Assembly (NCBI GenBank): GCA_964506255.1
Contig: CAZDKE010000005.1
Location: 2,876-66,875, forward strand
From: an uncultured Lishizhenia sp.
Lineage (GTDB): Bacteria; Bacteroidota; Bacteroidia; Flavobacteriales_D; Crocinitomicaceae
Reading direction: 5' to 3'
Length of the DNA stretch: 64,000 nt
Shown: one piece after another, positions 34,061 to 42,110 of the stretch
How positions within the stretch are numbered: position 1 is the first letter of the stretch
Layout: every line of letters begins with the position of its first letter
Notes under the pieces: generated by a model
Told to the model about the DNA's origin: nothing
The model's database searches: none
Seen by the model: the letters and a program-made list of their open reading frames with translations, nothing else
Position numbers and translations under genes: made by a program

Positions 34061-34085
34061 AATTTTCAAACCAATTTTAATTAGA

Positions 34086-34115
34086 AGTCATAAGTTTCCT
34101 TATGGCTTTTTTTTA
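34086..34115 (+). terminator. Rho-independent terminator after fabI
   Basis: agtcataag-tttc-cttatggct, a 9-bp stem with one G-U pair, followed by a T-run. Confidence 0.75.
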
Positions 34116-34209: not shown

Positions 34210-34217
34210 TACATTTG
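34210..34217 (+). promoter_or_regulatory. -7 promoter box (TACATTTG) heading the dab operon region
   Basis: TACATTTGcactGTG has the same box-N4-start geometry seen at smpB and the ATL gene. Confidence 0.4.
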
Positions 34218-34221
34218 CACT

Positions 34222-34599
34222 GTGAAAAATTGTGTCTTCCATAAATGTATTCTTGTTGTTGCAGCTTTTTGTCTGTTCTTCAACAGCATTGGATTTCAAC
34301 ATTTTCCTATAGAGCCTCGAACTTTTTCCAAACTTCAATCGACAGAAATTTCAAGTGGTGAAGAGATAAAATCTTCTGTTTTGGTTTCATTTATTGACTC
34401 TGAAGAACGAAATTTAGAACTTGAAAATGAAAGAGATGCGGAAGAAGATGGGGATAATGACCATTTAATTGCAACACTAGAACAACAATTAATAGCGGTT
34501 TACATAAATGATTTCGATGAAAATTCAATTGAAAATCAAAGTGTAAAACACGCTCACAGCCTTCCACTTTACATTCAATACGAAAATTTTAGACTTTAG
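34222..34599 (+). CDS. hypothetical small protein (hydrophobic N-terminus, acidic C-terminal half); could instead be an untranslated leader
   Basis: Track ORF with a GTG start 4 nt after a -7 box. N-terminus CILVVAAFCLFFNSIGF, followed by an acidic region ELENERDAEEDGDNDH. No family recognised. Confidence 0.4.
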   Translation: MKNCVFHKCILVVAAFCLFFNSIGFQHFPIEPRTFSKLQSTEISSGEEIKSSVLVSFIDSEERNLELENERDAEEDGDNDHLIATLEQQLIAVYINDFDENSIENQSVKHAHSLPLYIQYENFRL

Positions 34600-34653
34600 A
34601 ATTTACATTCAACTTTAAGTAAAATACTTAGTTACGAATGTAAAATTTAATTT

Positions 34654-37134
34654 ATGAACACAAATAAAAATTTCCAATTATCGGAAGTCGTTCATCACCT
34701 CAAACATTATTTACCTGCACAGGCACCTCTTAAAGATTTTATTCATCACAATACCCTTCATGCATTTCAAAGTGACAATTTTCACGATGCATTAAACGAA
34801 GCTAATAAAATTTTTGGATACAAAACCTACTTACAGATTGAGGATTTTCGACGACTTTTTAATGAAGGAAAAATAGATAAAGAAATTGTAATGCGATTTA
34901 TTCCATCAGAAAATCAAGCGATTTGGATGGATAAATTACTGAATCAAAAATGGGATGAAAGTAGTGTCCCACGTTGTGGATTACTCAGAAATCAGTGGAA
35001 AGAAAATTTCCATATCGATTTGGATTCAATGACACATCCGCTTTTATTCAGAATTGTGAGTAGTTACCTCGATCAAGGTATTTCAATTTGGAATTTCCCT
35101 GTTCATCACGTTGGATTTTTGCAAGCAATTCGCATTTTAGAATCCAATGGAACAGTTAGTTTTTTTAAAACGAAAAGAGCAAAAGCCTTATTAGCAAAAG
35201 AAGAAACAACAATTGAAGATCTTTTAAAATTGGTTGTTGGAAACGAAAAATGGTTTGAATATTACCTTTTTGATCAACAATTTGCGCATCCGGGTTATTC
35301 AGGAATTGTTGCAGTTTTAGAAGATAATCCAAATTTGTTAATTGATAATCGTACCGTTTCATTGACAGAATTCATGTTTTTTGAGTTGCTTCTTGAAATT
35401 GACACCTTAGATAATTACTTTGGTGAAATTTGGGCACCGATTTCTGTTAAAATGACAACGGATTTAGTTCCGCTTTTTGCACCAGTAGCAGTAGATGAGC
35501 TCAATGAAGTTAGAAGAATCTGGCAAGAAGCTTATGAATGGACTTATTATGATGAAGTAATAAATGGTATTTTACACAAACATCAAAGCGTTCTAGCAGA
35601 AACAGAATTACAGGCCTTATTTTGTATTGATGACCGCGAATGTTCAATTAGAAGACACATCGAAGAACAACTGCCAGGTGCTAAAACGTATGGAACAGCT
35701 GGGTTTTTCAATGTTGAGTTTTATTTTCAACCCGCTAATTCTGATTTTAGAACAAAAGTTTGTCCTGCGCCATTAACTCCCAAATATCTAGTAAAAGAAA
35801 TCATAGGCGATAAAAAGCAATCCACTGATTTTCATTTCCATAAACGAGCGCATGGTTTAGTTTTTGGTTGGTTGATTACGCACACGATTGGATTTTGGTC
35901 AGCATTGAAATTAGTTGGTTCAATTTTAAAACCTATTCAAAATGCTGCTGCTGTTTCGGCTGCTCGACACATGCATACAGATTCAGAATTGACTTATGAA
36001 AATCTTAATGGTGAAAGAACAGAGGATGGTTTGCAAATCGGATTTACAATTTCAGAAATGGCTGATCGATTGGAGGGATTGCTAAAAAGCATTGGTTTAG
36101 TTGATTGTTTTGCTCCGATAATTTATATCGTTGGACATGGTTCAAGTAGTTCCAATAATACTCATTATGCAGGTTATGATTGTGGTGCTTGTTCTGGACG
36201 TCCAGGTTCTGTTAATGCAAGGGTAATTTCAAAAATTGGAAACAATCCGAAAGTGAGAGCAATTTTAACTGAAAGAGGAATTGTTATTCCTGCATCCACA
36301 CAGTTTTTACCAGTTCTCCACGATACTTCCCGCGATGAGTTTTCCTATTTCGATACAGAGATTTTAAGTGAATCCAATAAAATAAGACAAGAGATTAATA
36401 ATGATGCATTTAATCGCGCATTGAATTTGAATGCAATGGAGCGTTCAAGAAGATTTGTCTTAGTGGATTCTCATAAAAACCTTAAAAAAGTGCATGAAGC
36501 CGTTAAATTACGTTCTGTTTCATTGTTTGAACCTCGACCAGAATTGAATCACTCTAACAATACATTGTGTATTGTTGGTCGCAGAGAAATCACTCGAAAT
36601 TTGTTCTTGGATAGAAGAGCTTTCTTAAATTCATTTGATTACCAAGTGGATCCAGAAGGTAAGTATTTATTAGGGATATTAAATGCAATCGCTCCTGTTT
36701 GTGGAGGAATTAATTTAGAATATTATTTCTCAAGAGTTGATAATCAAAAATTAGGTGCAGGCACAAAATTACCGCATAATGTGATGGGTTTAATTGGTGT
36801 AGCAAACGGGATTGATGGTGATTTACGAACAGGTTTACCAAGTCAAATGATTGAAGTTCATGATCCAATTCGATTATTAGCGATTGTGGAACATTTTTCA
36901 GAAGTGGTTTTGAAAACCATGCAAATCAATCCTGCAACGTATGAATGGTTTAAAAATGAATGGGTTCGATTAGTGGTAATTGATCCAGCTTCTAAAAAGC
37001 CATTTCTTTTTAAAAATGGTGCTTTTGAGCCGTATCATTTAGTGGATAGACAACTTCCTGAAGTGGATGATTTATTACCTGTTTTTAAGAAGGAACATAC
37101 TAATTTGCCAGTTTACGAACTTCAAACTCATTAA
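34654..37134 (+). CDS. dabA: DabA (DUF2309/UPF0753), beta-carbonic-anhydrase-like subunit of a DAB inorganic-carbon pump
   Basis: 826 aa. N-terminus ...LKHYLPAQAPLKDFIHHNTLHAF. Putative zinc ligands lie in LFCIDDRECS (Cys ~35623, Asp) and in GHGSSS...YDCGACSG (His ~36136, Cys 36181/36190). Confidence 0.85.
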   Translation: MNTNKNFQLSEVVHHLKHYLPAQAPLKDFIHHNTLHAFQSDNFHDALNEANKIFGYKTYLQIEDFRRLFNEGKIDKEIVMRFIPSENQAIWMDKLLNQKWDESSVPRCGLLRNQWKENFHIDLDSMTHPLLFRIVSSYLDQGISIWNFPVHHVGFLQAIRILESNGTVSFFKTKRAKALLAKEETTIEDLLKLVVGNEKWFEYYLFDQQFAHPGYSGIVAVLEDNPNLLIDNRTVSLTEFMFFELLLEIDTLDNYFGEIWAPISVKMTTDLVPLFAPVAVDELNEVRRIWQEAYEWTYYDEVINGILHKHQSVLAETELQALFCIDDRECSIRRHIEEQLPGAKTYGTAGFFNVEFYFQPANSDFRTKVCPAPLTPKYLVKEIIGDKKQSTDFHFHKRAHGLVFGWLITHTIGFWSALKLVGSILKPIQNAAAVSAARHMHTDSELTYENLNGERTEDGLQIGFTISEMADRLEGLLKSIGLVDCFAPIIYIVGHGSSSSNNTHYAGYDCGACSGRPGSVNARVISKIGNNPKVRAILTERGIVIPASTQFLPVLHDTSRDEFSYFDTEILSESNKIRQEINNDAFNRALNLNAMERSRRFVLVDSHKNLKKVHEAVKLRSVSLFEPRPELNHSNNTLCIVGRREITRNLFLDRRAFLNSFDYQVDPEGKYLLGILNAIAPVCGGINLEYYFSRVDNQKLGAGTKLPHNVMGLIGVANGIDGDLRTGLPSQMIEVHDPIRLLAIVEHFSEVVLKTMQINPATYEWFKNEWVRLVVIDPASKKPFLFKNGAFEPYHLVDRQLPEVDDLLPVFKKEHTNLPVYELQTH

Positions 37135-37137
37135 GCC

Positions 37138-39003
37138 ATGGAAGGATTTATTCATTTGTTTATTTTACTTCCATTTGTGAGTTTTTTCTTGAGTCTATTG
37201 ATTCCGAAGAAAAATGAACAGGCACTTTCTGTATTGGCTTACACTTCCGTTGGAATCCAGTTTTTTACAGCCTTGGTGTTCTCCGTTATTTGGATTATAA
37301 ATAAAATGCCGGTTATCAATTTGAAAGAGTTTTCGGTTTATCAAGCTTCCAATTACGACTTTTTTATTGATTTTTATTTTGATAAAATCACCTTAGTTTA
37401 CTTGATTTTAGGTTCAATGATAACGTTTGTAATTACCATTTATAGTCGTTATTATCTTCACCGAGAAGAAGGTTACAAAAGATTTTTCAATACCATTTTA
37501 TTCTTTTATCTAGGGTTTAACATCATTATTTTTTCTGGAAATGTTGAAACTTTATTTATCGGTTGGGAAATTTTGGGCTTATCTTCCTTTTTGTTAATCG
37601 CCTTTTATCGCGATCGCTATTTACCTGTAAAAAATGCGGTGAAGGTCTTTTCAATCTATCGTATTGGGGATGTTGGATTAATTTTGGTAATGTGGTTATC
37701 ACATCATTTATGGCATGAGAATATTTCATTTTTTAAACTCAATAATGCGGAACTTGTCCATTCACATTTGACGGAAAATTCACTAGTTGGATTGGCAATT
37801 TCAATGATGATATTTGTTTCAGCAGCTGCTAAATCGGCTCAATTACCTTTTTCATCGTGGTTGCCTCGTGCAATGGAAGGACCAACACCTTCAAGTGCTA
37901 TTTTTTATGGATCCTTATCGGTTCATATTGGCGCATTTTTGATGTTGCGAACTTATCCTTTTTGGGAATTTCAAACCGGATTTAGAATTTTCCTTGGTTT
38001 TGCGGGGTTCGCAACTGCAATTGTTTCCACCTTCATTGGTCGAGTTCAAAGCTCTATAAAAAGTCAAATCGCTTATTCTTCGATTGCTCAAATAGGCTTG
38101 ATTTTCATTGAAATCGCTTTAGGATTAGAAAATATTGCTTTAGTTCACATAACAGGAAATGCCTTTTTAAGAACGTATCAATTATTGGTTTCGCCTTCAA
38201 TTGTAAGTTATAAAATCAGAGAGCAGTTTTACAATTTCGTTCCTAGAGCTAAAACAATTGAAGATTCTTGGCCAAAACGAGTTGAATATGCGCTTTATAT
38301 TTTGAGTTTAAAAGAGTGGAATTTAGATAGTATGCTTTATGCTTATCTCTGGAATCCATTAAAGCGAATAGGTACATATTGGAAAATATTAAACTTTAAG
38401 TATATTTTTGTATTTGCTGGAATTGTAGTTTTTATTGGTTTGATTTTACTAAATTTCGCAACGATTATTCCTGAGAAATACAAAAGTAATTTTCCTGTTT
38501 TGTTTGCTATCGTTGGTTTTCTCATTGTTATCAAGGCATTTACAGAAAGAGATAGTGTTCGCAAAAGTTGGACATTAATTCTATTGAACCACCTAACAAT
38601 CGCAATCGCCATTTCTTTCAACGAACATTTTGATTGGATGCATCATGTTTGGTATTTAAGTGGAATCGTAACAGCCTGGTTTATTGGGTTAATAGTGTTA
38701 AACAACCTACGAAAACAAGAATGGGTAAGTTTGAATCAGTTTTATGGTCATTCGTATGAACATCCAAAAATTGCCATTCTGTTTTTGCTTTGCGCACTTG
38801 GATTGTCAGGATTTCCGATAACTCCTTCATTTGTTGGGGAGGATTTGATTTTTTCACACATTCACTACAATCAAATAGGTTTGGCTTTTTTCACTGCATT
38901 GAGCTTGATTATTAATGGACTAGCAACGATACGTATTTATGCACGTGTTTTTCTTGGTCCACATATTAAAACGTATCACGAGGTAGCAAAACGCTCTTCT
39001 TAG
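37138..39003 (+). CDS. dabB: DabB, NuoL/MrpA-like proton-conducting membrane subunit
   Basis: 621-aa polytopic protein with the NuoL/ND5 core (GWEILGLSSFLLI, AAAKSAQLPFSSWLPRAMEGPTP). It starts 3 nt after the dabA stop. Confidence 0.85.
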   Translation: MEGFIHLFILLPFVSFFLSLLIPKKNEQALSVLAYTSVGIQFFTALVFSVIWIINKMPVINLKEFSVYQASNYDFFIDFYFDKITLVYLILGSMITFVITIYSRYYLHREEGYKRFFNTILFFYLGFNIIIFSGNVETLFIGWEILGLSSFLLIAFYRDRYLPVKNAVKVFSIYRIGDVGLILVMWLSHHLWHENISFFKLNNAELVHSHLTENSLVGLAISMMIFVSAAAKSAQLPFSSWLPRAMEGPTPSSAIFYGSLSVHIGAFLMLRTYPFWEFQTGFRIFLGFAGFATAIVSTFIGRVQSSIKSQIAYSSIAQIGLIFIEIALGLENIALVHITGNAFLRTYQLLVSPSIVSYKIREQFYNFVPRAKTIEDSWPKRVEYALYILSLKEWNLDSMLYAYLWNPLKRIGTYWKILNFKYIFVFAGIVVFIGLILLNFATIIPEKYKSNFPVLFAIVGFLIVIKAFTERDSVRKSWTLILLNHLTIAIAISFNEHFDWMHHVWYLSGIVTAWFIGLIVLNNLRKQEWVSLNQFYGHSYEHPKIAILFLLCALGLSGFPITPSFVGEDLIFSHIHYNQIGLAFFTALSLIINGLATIRIYARVFLGPHIKTYHEVAKRSS

Positions 39004-39027
39004 TATTCAAAAATTAAAACATAATAA

Positions 39028-40689
39028 ATGAAAAATATAATTCCAAAAGACGGATTTGAAGGATTAAAACAAAATTTTTCAAGTGACGCAATTTCAGGTT
39101 TTTTAGTGTTTCTCTTAGCTTTACCTTTAAGTTTAGGTATTGCAGGAGCAAGTGATTTCCCACCAATTTATGGATTAGTTTCTGCAATGATTGGTGGTTT
39201 GATAGTAACCTTTTTTGTTGGTTCACCACTGACAATCAAAGGTCCAGCAGCAGGTTTGATTGTGATTGTTGCGGGAGCAGTTGCTGAATTTGGTTTAGGT
39301 GCACCGCAAGGTTCAACAGCAGAAGAAATTGGCCGTTATGGTTGGCAATTAGCCCTTGGTGCTGTAGTGGTGGCTGGTGTTTTGCAAGTAATTTTTGGAC
39401 TTTTAAAGTTAGGAGGATTAAGTGATTTTTTCCCTTTACCTGCCGTTCATGGAATGTTAGCTGCTATTGGGATAATTATCATAAGTAAGCAAATACACAT
39501 TCTTGTTGGAATGAATCCATTAACATCCGAAGGAAAAGCGATGGTTGAACCGATGGAACTGTTACAAGAAATTCCAACGACTTTATCACACATATTCTTG
39601 CATGAACATGTTGCCATTGTTGGAATTCTAAGTTTAATCATCGTCTTTGGTTGGCCTTATATCCCGATTAAATTATTAAAGAAAATTCCAGCTTCATTGG
39701 TAGTGTTAGTTGTTGCAATTCCACTCACAAAAATCTTAGATATTCACAACAGTATGGAACTGAGAAATTCTGCTGGGATGCTGATAAATAAAGGGTATAA
39801 ACCACTTTTAGAATTTGATAAAGGATTATTGGACATTATCGGAATCAATGTTTCGTTTCAAGGATTTTCGCAAATTGGCGTTTTTATCAAATATGTGGTA
39901 ATGTTTGCTTTAGTTGGAAGTTTAGAGGCTTTATTAACCTTAAAAGCAATCGATTTATTAGATCCATTTAAAAGAAAATCAAATTCTAATAAAGATTTGG
40001 TTGCCGTTGGAATTGGGAATATTATCGCTGGTGTGTTAGGAGGATTACCGATGATTAGTGAAGTTGCTCGTTCTTCTGCAAATATTAGCAATGGCGGAAA
40101 AACGCGTTGGGCCAATTTCTTTCACGGATTTTTTATCTTGATTTTCTTACTGTTTGCTGTCTATTTTTCAGATTTAATTCCAAAATCAGCTTTGGCAGCT
40201 ATGTTAATTGGAGTAGGGTGGAAGTTAGCTCATCCAAGGGAATTTGGAAGCATGATTAAAATTGGAACAGATCAGTTTTTAATTTTTGTTGTTACCATTA
40301 TTTTCACTTTGATTACCGATTTATTAATTGGTATTGCAGCAGGGATTTTACTGAAATTGATTATGCATTTGATACATGGTGTGCCAGCAAAAAGTTTATT
40401 CAACGCGCAAACAATAGTTAAAGAATCGGGTCTTGAAGTACATGGTGCTGTTGTGTTTAGCAACTTTATCAAAGTGAAAAATTTATTGAATAAATTTCCA
40501 AAAACAGAAGAAATTTTCTTGGATGTTCGGGATTGTAAACTTATTGACCACTCTGTAATTGAATCAATACATCATTTAAAAGGTGAATTCAAAGAAGAAG
40601 GTGGTTCACTAACAATTATAGGAATCGAAGAATTTAAAAATATGAACCGTTCTACGCATGAATTGGCGACCAAAAAAAAGAAAAAATGA
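39028..40689 (+). CDS. SulP family inorganic anion transporter with C-terminal STAS domain (BicA-like)
   Basis: N-terminal SulP signature (DAISGFLVFLLALPLSLGIAGAS), about 10-12 TM helices, and a C-terminal STAS-like ~110 aa. Confidence 0.85.
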   Translation: MKNIIPKDGFEGLKQNFSSDAISGFLVFLLALPLSLGIAGASDFPPIYGLVSAMIGGLIVTFFVGSPLTIKGPAAGLIVIVAGAVAEFGLGAPQGSTAEEIGRYGWQLALGAVVVAGVLQVIFGLLKLGGLSDFFPLPAVHGMLAAIGIIIISKQIHILVGMNPLTSEGKAMVEPMELLQEIPTTLSHIFLHEHVAIVGILSLIIVFGWPYIPIKLLKKIPASLVVLVVAIPLTKILDIHNSMELRNSAGMLINKGYKPLLEFDKGLLDIIGINVSFQGFSQIGVFIKYVVMFALVGSLEALLTLKAIDLLDPFKRKSNSNKDLVAVGIGNIIAGVLGGLPMISEVARSSANISNGGKTRWANFFHGFFILIFLLFAVYFSDLIPKSALAAMLIGVGWKLAHPREFGSMIKIGTDQFLIFVVTIIFTLITDLLIGIAAGILLKLIMHLIHGVPAKSLFNAQTIVKESGLEVHGAVVFSNFIKVKNLLNKFPKTEEIFLDVRDCKLIDHSVIESIHHLKGEFKEEGGSLTIIGIEEFKNMNRSTHELATKKKKK

Positions 40690-41456
40690 GATTTAAATCA
40701 TTTTTATTCGTGGTAACTATTGCTGTTTGTAATCTAGCTTTTTCTCAGAAAACGATTAGCAATCAGAATCATGCTTGGGTGACTTATTTAGGAAACCATA
40801 AATTGACAGATAAAATTAGTTTGCATACTGAATATCAATGGCGTCGTGCGGATGGATTTCAAAATTGGCAACAATCTTTGGCAAGAATTGGTATTGATTA
40901 TAATTTACTTCCAAATTTTTCTATCACAGCAGGTTATGGATGGATTGTTTCTTATCCGTATGGTGATCAAGCAATCGCACACACCTATAACGAACATCGT
41001 ATTTGGCAACAAGTTAATGCTAAGGCTAAATATGGACGATTTGAATTGCAACATCGCTATCGTTTAGAACAACGTTTCTTGGAAAATTACATCAGAAATC
41101 AAGACGGAACTTTTTCGAAAGGAGCTGATTTATTCCGTCAACGAGTCCGATATCGAGCAATGGTTTTGGTTCCATTATCGCGCAAAGAAATGTTAGATAA
41201 TACCTTGTTTTTAAACGTAAACAACGAGCTATTTCTTGGTTTTGGAAAAGGAATAGGAAAAAATATTTTAGACCAAAACCGAATGAATTTTGCTCTTGGT
41301 TGGCGCTTCAACAAAGATTTTAATGTTCAAATGGGTTATTTGAATCAATTTGTTGTGAAATCGGATGGCGTTAAAGCAGAGCGAAATCATACTTTACTCA
41401 TTTCAACCGTCCATAATATTGATTTTACAAAAAGGAAAAAAGCATTTAAGATGTAG
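40686..41456 (+). CDS. DUF2490-like predicted outer-membrane beta-barrel protein
   Basis: Signal peptide, then Tyr/Trp/Arg-rich alternating strands (HTEYQWRR, ELQHRYRLEQRF). ATGA overlap with the SulP gene. Confidence 0.65.
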   Translation: MRFKSFLFVVTIAVCNLAFSQKTISNQNHAWVTYLGNHKLTDKISLHTEYQWRRADGFQNWQQSLARIGIDYNLLPNFSITAGYGWIVSYPYGDQAIAHTYNEHRIWQQVNAKAKYGRFELQHRYRLEQRFLENYIRNQDGTFSKGADLFRQRVRYRAMVLVPLSRKEMLDNTLFLNVNNELFLGFGKGIGKNILDQNRMNFALGWRFNKDFNVQMGYLNQFVVKSDGVKAERNHTLLISTVHNIDFTKRKKAFKM

Positions 41457-41461
41457 GTAGG

Positions 41462-41522
41462 ACCTGTCACTGGAATTTAGTTTTTTAGTAATTTAACTAG
41501 AGGAAGGTGGCAGGTTTTTTTG
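41462..41522 (+). terminator. probable terminator of the dab-SulP-DUF2490 operon
   Basis: acctgtcac ... gtggcaggt, a 9-bp stem with one G-U pair and a long loop, followed by seven T. Confidence 0.5.
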
Positions 41523-41795
41523 ATTTAGATTAATTTTCAGTTCAGGAAATAAAGAATGATAAATAAATTGAAAGAATGTTTCCTACCATATTCGTTTCCT
41601 CTTTCAAGACTTATTTCAAATGGAAGTTAGAAATGTTCTTTTCTTCAACTATTCTTATTCATTATCTTTAGTTGTGTTCTTTTTTCTTTGAATGGATTTA
41701 ATGCTATTGTTTTTAAATTCAACCCTGATATCAATCGTTTTAATAAAGAAAACAAACTTTTTATAGGTTTTACCACATACTAAAACCTTGTCGTA

Positions 41796-42110
41796 TTAAT
41801 AATTTTCAAAAGGAATTTCAATGATATCAAAAGACAATTTTGCTTGGTTGATAGTATCAATTAGGCTCATTTCTGAATTTCTCAATGAACCCAAAATATA
41901 ACGGTCAATTTCAGGTAAGAAATTTTTAAAATTAGCTTTGAATTCATTGAACTTGTCAACTTGATCTTGTTTGATTTGTTTATCTTTTGCTTGAATATAC
42001 AATTCACATAAAACGCCATAACCTTCAAAAACTTGTGCATTGTGATAGGTTTCTGAATTACCTGTAAATGCTTTTATGTAGGAAAAATCTGATTTTTCTT
42101 TATAATTCAT
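41796..42110 (-). CDS. hypothetical 104-aa cytoplasmic protein
   Basis: ORF with a clean ATG, predicted helical, and no recognised motif. Confidence 0.45.
   Translation of the reverse strand: MNYKEKSDFSYIKAFTGNSETYHNAQVFEGYGVLCELYIQAKDKQIKQDQVDKFNEFKANFKNFLPEIDRYILGSLRNSEMSLIDTINQAKLSFDIIEIPFENY

Follow-up and report, generated by a model that had tools for sequence, protein, structure and literature searches.

A DAB operon with a SulP transporter and a DUF2490 outer-membrane barrel in an uncultured Lishizhenia: a candidate inorganic-carbon uptake unit spanning both membranes

We examined a 64,000-nucleotide stretch, hereafter called the window, of an assembly from an uncultured Lishizhenia sp. 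of the Crocinitomicaceae (GCA_964506255.1, contig CAZDKE010000005.1, positions 2,876 to 66,875). Its G+C content is low, about 33%. Five open reading frames (ORFs) lie head to tail on the + strand between 34222 and 41456. A small ORF of 125 amino acids (34222-34599) is followed by dabA (34654-37134), encoding the carbonic-anhydrase-like subunit of a DAB CO2-hydrating complex, and by dabB (37138-39003), encoding its NuoL/Mrp-antiporter-like membrane subunit (Proton_antipo_M, 4e-37; Proton_antipo_N, 5e-9). The fourth gene (39028-40689) encodes a SulP/SLC26-family anion transporter (PF00916, 4e-63) with a weak STAS domain. The last (40686-41456) encodes a DUF2490 protein (PF10677, 7e-51; TC 1.B.81), predicted to be an outer-membrane beta-barrel with a signal peptide and a candidate anion channel. 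The original prediction had described a unit of four genes; these are co-directional and conserved, and the small ORF, which is conserved as well, also belongs to it.

The dabA and dabB genes are 3 nt apart. With the last base of the dabB stop codon at 39003 and the SulP ATG beginning at 39028, the 24-nt gap given in the original prediction is borne out, and the start of the DUF2490 gene overlaps the SulP stop in an ATGA at 40686-40689, also as described there. The claim that the pair is translationally coupled to the dab genes did not survive, since the 24-nt gap amounts to close spacing and the overlap is limited to SulP and DUF2490. Strong terminators flank the unit and occur only outside it; the weak sites that the consensus scan placed inside genes are at chance level (5 found, 4.6 expected). 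The likely upstream boundary is a terminator-like hairpin on the + strand 3' of fabI (34083-34110), in which the scan found a 12-pair stem and then a T-run. Directly 3' of the DUF2490 gene lies an intrinsic terminator (41460-41523, + strand) made up of a long hairpin and U7. The hairpin (41460-41516) has a predicted RNA folding energy of -25.9 kcal/mol (z -4.72; none of 200 shuffled sequences did as well), and seven U come after it. The earlier statement that a hairpin and T-run come only after the fourth gene is correct.

Just 5' of the small ORF, a Bacteroidota-type -7 box, TACATTTG (34210-34217, + strand), is by its position a candidate operon promoter. A pattern search saw no -7 box on the + strand from 38884 to 41932, and hence none 5' of the DUF2490 gene. 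Across the window the -7 motif TANNTTTG is not above chance (88 found, 108 expected), so statements about promoters are weak; a sigma-70-type promoter scan is uninformative for Bacteroidota. The five genes from 34222 to 41456 probably form one operon, judging from the sequence, and would then be co-transcribed.

DabA matches PF10070 with 701 bits (E 2e-210) and its gene adjoins that of a NuoL/Mrp-type subunit, the combination by which a DAB complex is recognized from profiles. In a phmmer comparison DabA aligns to DabA2 of known structure (9rd0, E 9e-60) over its C-terminal 460 residues only. All four zinc ligands of DabA2 (C351, D353, H524, and C539) are identical at the aligned positions of the window DabA.

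The SulP protein matches the full Sulfate_transp profile (PF00916, positions 1-380) with 213.9 bits (cut-off 23.2). The putative STAS domain is short and scores below the Pfam cut-off (17.7 bits vs 22.6, E 0.003); alignments to the full-length SLC26 structures 5da0 and 9iar span the STAS region, to residues 533-534. The protein had been called BicA-like. This holds loosely, in that no solved structure matches better than the membrane domain of BicA (6ki1, E 8.5e-20), but the protein is not a BicA orthologue, with 116.7 bits on the BicA equivalog model NF050096 against a cut-off of 880. It scores 170.8 bits on the equivalog model for the C4-dicarboxylate transporter DauA (NF008660, cut-off 614). 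Orthology with BicA or DauA was rejected because the scores are far below both NCBIfam cut-offs. Several related operons contain long SulPs of 712-738 amino acids (L013:7866-10004, L030:138-2342, L034:6790-8982, L044:6863-9001, L069, and L071, in our numbering of loci), whose additional C-terminal stretch of about 200 residues matches no Pfam family and is no carbonic anhydrase. We considered whether those of L013, L030, and L034 are carbonic-anhydrase fusions and rejected the idea, as their extra residues have no Pfam match.

The DUF2490 protein matches PF10677 with 172.9 bits (cut-off 29.8) over profile positions 2-182 of 186. As originally predicted, it bears a signal peptide: its N-terminus is a hydrophobic Sec-type signal ending ..AFS/QK, and the Gln and Lys that follow the cleavage point are each at least 90% conserved in 52 relatives. 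The mature protein contains 7.6% Arg, 5.1% Tyr, and 2.5% Trp; of the earlier description as rich in Tyr, Trp, and Arg, the Arg part stands and the other two are only moderate. An AlphaFold2 model built from an alignment of the 52 relatives is confident and all-beta (pLDDT 91.7, pTM 0.82). A Foldseek search of the PDB with this model gave no match at E<=0.001, and the sub-threshold matches were outer-membrane barrels only. In a VIA-align comparison (wide setting) with 48,161 chains, the top matches were PcoB (Z 15.5), NanC (15.3), VhGalP (14.8), and KdgM (14.4), followed by a COG4313 channel (13.1), autotransporter barrels (about 13), LpxR (12.8), OpcA (11.8), and OmpLA (11.2). The KdgM, NanC, and PcoB matches span the whole barrel, with 158-180 residues aligned at an rmsd of 2.9-3.5 and 8-12% identity. 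The earlier proposal of an outer-membrane barrel is therefore upheld by structure prediction, with all top fold matches being outer-membrane barrels, and the modeled protein is of the small 12-strand type. It does not belong to the KdgM/NanC family by sequence: at E<=0.01, its only Pfam matches are DUF2490 and, below threshold, Phenol_MetA_deg.

The solved structures closest to the model are genuine channels for charged solutes; NanC and KdgM among them are small and monomeric, with basic residues arranged in tracks. By strand parity, the residues predicted to face the lumen of the DUF2490 barrel include 12 Arg and 4 Lys against 6 Glu and 1 Asp, with the runs R124/R126/R130 and R151/R153/R155/R157 on neighboring strands. 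This net-positive lumen fits an anion path, and the model may represent an open pore. The four other DUF2490 paralogues of the same genome adjoin CotH (twice), GH20/YkuD, and OmpA/HipA genes, and a general association of DUF2490 paralogues with SulP was accordingly rejected for this genome. The two beside CotH-kinase-domain proteins with type IX sorting domains (C64:8568-9251 and C86:2479-3189, loci L051 and L052) represent another setting in which the family recurs.

Searching 185,579 species genomes with the DUF2490 protein gave 11 loci, mostly in metagenome-assembled genomes of Crocinitomicaceae, to which we added ten metagenome loci chosen for long contigs only. Genes were called with tblastn, phmmer, and precomputed Pfam tags. 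The complete order of small ORF, dabA, dabB, SulP, and DUF2490 occurs in 11 of these approximately 21 loci (L006, L007, L009, L013, L014, L044, L045, L047, L054, L055, and L056), with DUF2490 orthologues at 58-90% identity and DabA identity down to about 60%. The spacing from SulP to DUF2490 at the orthologue loci is -4 to +20 nt. Two of the records, L009 and L013, are titled Chitinophaga pinensis and Akkermansia sp., yet the locus is Crocinitomicaceae-like and the labels look unreliable; the FabI of L009 is 97% identical to that of the window.

The remaining loci include what appears to be a decay series. L008 has SulP and DUF2490 only, without dab genes. In L106 and L110, from the family sample described below, dabA is absent and the 3' part of dabB is kept before an intact SulP-DUF2490 pair. 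In L016 (6139-6474), fabI is followed by the last approximately 117 SulP codons fused to an intact DUF2490 gene. This deletion scar indicates that the full operon was present first and was deleted later. DUF2490 stands alone in L012, L041/L042, L046, and L048. In a maximum-likelihood tree, L012 and L048 group with L054, and L016 groups with the window, so that such cases are nested among full-operon clades, as would be expected if the pump genes had been lost repeatedly and the barrel kept. The deep branches of the tree are not resolved and the paralogues sit on very long branches; we therefore do not claim a single origin for the more distant operon-linked DUF2490s.

An ORF of 96-146 amino acids occupies the position before dabA in nearly every related locus (window, L006, L009, L013, L027-L037, L044-L056, and L061-L096). 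Like the window's small ORF, for which no Pfam or NCBIfam match was found, it is hydrophobic at the N-terminus and acidic in the middle, and its C-terminal part contains a conserved motif, of which forms like ..LPLYIQYENFRL or LFHSWK are common to many loci. A similarly built small ORF ending ..PYSPPE.. precedes a unit of SulP and beta-carbonic anhydrase in L010, in L053, and in the window's own genome (C27:11704-12057).

Among 401 Bacteroidota genomes sampled across the phylum, 24 contain DabA. The order dabB-dabA is found at 10 loci, with neither SulP nor DUF2490 or another barrel nearby. The order dabA-dabB, as in the window, is found at 13, with SulP adjacent in 11 and beta-carbonic anhydrase in 2 (L038 and L039). 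DUF2490 follows SulP in L029, L035, and L036, where it is 27-33% identical to the window protein and comes from other families; with L085 included, distant DUF2490 subfamilies at 27-42% identity follow SulP in dab operons of other families and classes. In L027, L032, and L033 the gene after SulP encodes an unrelated protein of about 450 amino acids, and in L034 such a protein comes after dabB. The survey of DUF2490, SulP, and DabAB co-occurrence that the original prediction had suggested thus finds the linkage in many genomes, including those with distant DUF2490 subfamilies. A few dab loci are arranged differently. L088 (G533:C11) and L089 (G407:C88) have two window-type dabA genes in tandem (dabA, a 137-amino-acid ORF, dabA, dabB), the first without its own dabB. 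In L075 (G443:C3) both DAB types adjoin and are convergent, with dabB-dabA of the other type followed on the opposite strand by SulP-dabB-dabA of the window's type.

In 151 genomes of the window's own family, DabA is patchy, being present in 64 genomes and in 20 of the 29 genera. We retrieved every window-type operon of the family that lacks a close DUF2490, and every window-type operon examined carries the small ORF and SulP. What comes directly after SulP varies: a DUF2490 gene in 17 genomes (fourteen called by coordinates, plus G508, G528, and G486), the gene for the approximately 450-amino-acid protein in 16, and an unrelated gene such as those for Era, DPP-IV, FKBP, or isocitrate dehydrogenase in 16. 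Three operons at contig ends were left out of this count. Overall, 33 of 49 operons end in a barrel. Both barrel types occur in genera g191, g192, and g202, in different species. The DUF2490 orthogroup (31 genomes) and the other barrel (51 genomes) co-occur in only 2 of the 151 genomes, where the DUF2490 match is weak and distant (naive odds ratio 0.10, p 2e-4), and possession of either barrel is associated with DabA (odds ratio 4.5), although these statistics ignore kinship and are indicative only.

The alternative barrel has a signal peptide and the C-terminus ..QYQFSF. It has no Pfam match of its own, and our profiles A2 and A3 matched no PDB sequence. Its link to the OprO/OprP porins is based on three observations: 12 of 54 family members match Porin_O_P (PF07396), the Atlas groups it with clusters named "OprO/OprP family", and its structural model (pLDDT 93.7) has OprP (2o4v, E 4.9e-13) and OprO as best fold matches. 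The spacing from SulP to this porin is -32 to +147 nt. No such porin was found in the window's own genome. The porin family is not generally dab-linked, since two randomly chosen members lie in unrelated contexts. In L063 (9139-10466) the porin gene after SulP is split into ORFs of 252 and 176 amino acids, probably by a frameshift or as a pseudogene. Two unrelated barrels that share one slot and have complementary distributions are what would be expected if a single function, here the passage of anions through the outer membrane, had undergone non-orthologous replacement. Given that relatives often carry a phosphate-porin-like gene in its place, the DUF2490 barrel is probably an anion channel in the service of inorganic-carbon uptake.

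Several neighbors point to inorganic carbon. A beta-carbonic anhydrase gene joins the cluster or a second SulP in L038, L039, L010, L053, L063, L065, L066, and C27. In L010 and L053, the DUF2490 orthologue is convergent to a unit of small ORF, SulP, and beta-carbonic anhydrase. In the window's own genome, a second SulP (516 amino acids) is encoded immediately upstream of the only beta-carbonic anhydrase (C27:9481-11673). We looked for a periplasmic carbonic anhydrase in this genome and rejected the candidate, as the sole beta-type enzyme lacks a signal peptide and is thus predicted to be cytoplasmic, and no alpha type was found. No Rubisco was found in the genome, which is rated 100% complete. 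MpsAB has been proposed to supply bicarbonate to the carboxylases of a heterotroph (PMC13144422). By analogy, the role of the present unit would be bicarbonate supply to a heterotroph's carboxylases and not a carboxysomal carbon-concentrating mechanism.

The best-supported reading of these data is an uptake unit for inorganic carbon or a small anion that spans the envelope and has a facultative, interchangeable outer-membrane channel. We think it somewhat probable that the genes from 34222 to 41456 are one operon that supplies a freshwater heterotroph lacking Rubisco with bicarbonate across both membranes. The DUF2490 protein would be exported by Sec and would fold into a small barrel of the 12-strand type, whose Arg-lined lumen may admit bicarbonate, or another small anion, to the periplasm. 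The SulP carrier would then take the anion across the inner membrane, and DabAB, driven by an ion gradient, would hydrate inward-diffusing CO2 and so trap bicarbonate in the cytoplasm. The outer-membrane step would be a replaceable slot, filled in sister lineages by the OprO/OprP-like porin. That DUF2490 is a dedicated channel for bicarbonate or a similar small anion, interchangeable with this porin, is a more tentative proposal, which we put forward as a possibility somewhat short of even.

Several observations weigh against this reading. After SulP, 16 of the 49 family operons have no barrel, so one pump in three operates with no barrel of its own, and the distribution statistics for the barrels have the limits given above. 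Conversely, the 32 family loci with a DUF2490 orthologue comprise 16 full operons, the two SulP-DUF2490 loci L106 and L110 without dabA and with truncated dabB, one locus (L115) in which DUF2490 follows a second type of SulP, and 13 in which it stands alone, always full length with a signal peptide. In the window's genus, all 8 other genomes have DUF2490 but only 3 of them have DabA. The barrel is often kept without the pump and must be of value without it. The module is therefore facultative, not obligate. The original prediction of a two-membrane module gains from the unrelated OprO/OprP-like porin in the same slot, nearly exclusive of DUF2490, and loses by the barrel-less third; it was also staked on synteny being conserved in relatives, where the order does recur, but DUF2490 is often intact where dabA is absent. 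A -7-like box at 38876, inside dabB and 152 nt 5' of SulP, makes an internal promoter possible. Of the two equivalog models, that of DauA gives the SulP the higher score, and the substrate of the carrier cannot be read from sequence. Finally, the conserved Arg and Glu positions of DUF2490 are family-wide, including the paralogues beside CotH or GH20, and in AlphaFold models the conserved Arg/Glu/Tyr set is reported to be a buried network of very low solvent accessibility (10.64898/2026.07.29.741452), so that the lumen could be occluded.

These points bear on three other explanations. The SulP-DUF2490 pair could be a two-membrane route for another anion, such as sulfate, a C4-dicarboxylate, or oxalate, with the DabAB link reflecting something other than bicarbonate import, for example charge or pH balance or anion exchange. 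The SulP falls below both equivalog cut-offs and scores higher for DauA (171 vs 117 bits), the pair persists without dabA (L106, L110) and without any dab genes (L008), the proteins with the closest barrel folds transport acidic sugars or metal ions rather than bicarbonate, and the porin that replaces DUF2490 resembles phosphate porins. However, SulP is the constant partner of the window-type DabA in 11 of 13 phylum loci and in every family operon examined, and the recurrent beta-carbonic anhydrase, beside the cluster or a second SulP, also speaks against another anion; we regard this explanation as unlikely. The barrel could on the other hand be no pore, acting instead as an enzyme, anchor, or receptor with a filled lumen like PagP, OmpLA, LpxR, or OpcA. 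The last three also match the DUF2490 model, the invariant Arg/Glu/Tyr set is reported as buried (10.64898/2026.07.29.741452), and TC 1.B.81 is without demonstrated function (PMC4827864). Its best whole-barrel matches are nevertheless the channels PcoB, NanC, VhGalP, KdgM, and the COG4313 channel, and a bona fide porin fold in the same slot argues for permeation, which leaves a non-pore barrel improbable.

The association might also lack any functional coupling. DUF2490 would then be an outer-membrane protein with a housekeeping role, resident at one constant locus beside a class-III aminotransferase gene, and a dabAB-SulP cassette would have been inserted next to it and lost again many times. 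Comparison of L041, L046, L048, L101, and L103-L105 with L045, L047, L054, and L056 shows the same anchor (PGM/PMM and Aminotran_3 beside DUF2490) both with and without the cassette. DUF2490 is moreover core in the genus while dabA is patchy, and the four other paralogues of the genome lie in unrelated contexts. A fixed resident does not readily account for the distant DUF2490 subfamilies that also follow SulP in dab operons (L029, L035, L036, and L085), for the stop/start overlaps retained across lineages, for an unrelated porin in exactly that position in 16 genomes, with the two barrels nearly mutually exclusive, or for the SulP remnant of L016, which shows that the full operon preceded the deletion. 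We judge the lack of coupling to be quite unlikely. Against it, and in part against the transport of another anion, stand four features: the overlap kept between SulP and DUF2490, the occurrence of independent DUF2490 subfamilies in one slot, the exchange of the barrel for a porin, and the neighboring carbonic-anhydrase genes.

Three results are new here: a census, across the family, of the gene that follows SulP; the near-absence of genomes with both barrels; and the decay series, in which the barrel persists after loss of the pump. The DAB/Mps pumps known so far are two-gene systems, studied in autotrophs and a few pathogens, and models of inorganic-carbon uptake treat the outer membrane as freely permeable. 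The present data describe a widespread DAB branch of heterotrophic freshwater Bacteroidota that is consistently tied to SulP and, in two thirds of cases, also to one of two barrels. They offer a testable function for DUF2490 and suggest that, where classical general porins are lacking, passage through the outer membrane can restrict how much bicarbonate reaches a bacterium. Natural swap experiments are at hand in the genomes with DUF2490 or the OprO/OprP-like porin and in those with or without dabAB. The subject bears on anaplerotic CO2 fixation in abundant lake bacteria and on the engineering of carbon-concentrating modules. If DUF2490 is a dedicated anion channel, this would be the first function for a family of more than 4,000 proteins. 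Envelope-spanning carbon uptake in Bacteroidota would then consist of an outer-membrane channel, SulP, the vectorial CO2 hydratase DabAB, and a small leader protein, and would include an outer-membrane step in bacterial carbon acquisition that is absent from the literature searched. In full-text searches we came across no publication in which DAB genes are connected to both SulP and a barrel of the outer membrane, and none that assigns DUF2490 a function, in agreement with the earlier remark that this context is undescribed.

Cyanobacteria run bicarbonate transporters and CO2-hydrating complexes side by side, and the combination of DabAB with SulP parallels this arrangement. With DabA2-DabB2 of Halothiobacillus neapolitanus (9rd0) the window shares dabA/dabB homology, the zinc-ligand positions, and adjacent genes. 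DAB/DAC complexes are described as two- or three-gene units, to which the window adds SulP, an outer-membrane barrel, and a small leader ORF. None of these three additions is mentioned in the DAB literature searched, and outer-membrane components go unmentioned in the two recent papers on DAB structures. Staphylococcus aureus, the source of MpsAB (PMC13144422), is a heterotroph like the window's host, in which no Rubisco was found. Cyanobacterial BicA (6ki1) belongs to the same SLC26/SulP fold family as the window SulP, which is not orthologous to it, has a short and weak STAS domain, and has a substrate that is only predicted. Known SulP-carbonic-anhydrase pairs and fusions share with the window-type SulP a genomic association with carbonic-anhydrase-type functions.

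For the barrel, the closest structural comparisons are the 12-stranded acidic-solute channels KdgM and NanC and PcoB (4pr7, 2wjr, 8xua, 7pge), which are its best whole-barrel matches; DUF2490 has no relationship to them at the sequence level, and their substrates differ. The window protein is by sequence a full member of DUF2490/PF10677 (1.B.81), and its signal peptide and predicted barrel match the family prediction. That family is listed as a putative porin family without an established function (PMC4827864), and one subfamily now has a defined context, following SulP in dab operons. OprP and OprO, the phosphate- and diphosphate-selective porins of Pseudomonas (2o4v, 4rjw), are distant relatives of the porin that replaces DUF2490. 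The DUF2490 fold is unrelated and smaller, and the window has no such porin, but OprP and OprO provide a precedent for anion-selective outer-membrane channels encoded beside inner-membrane uptake systems.

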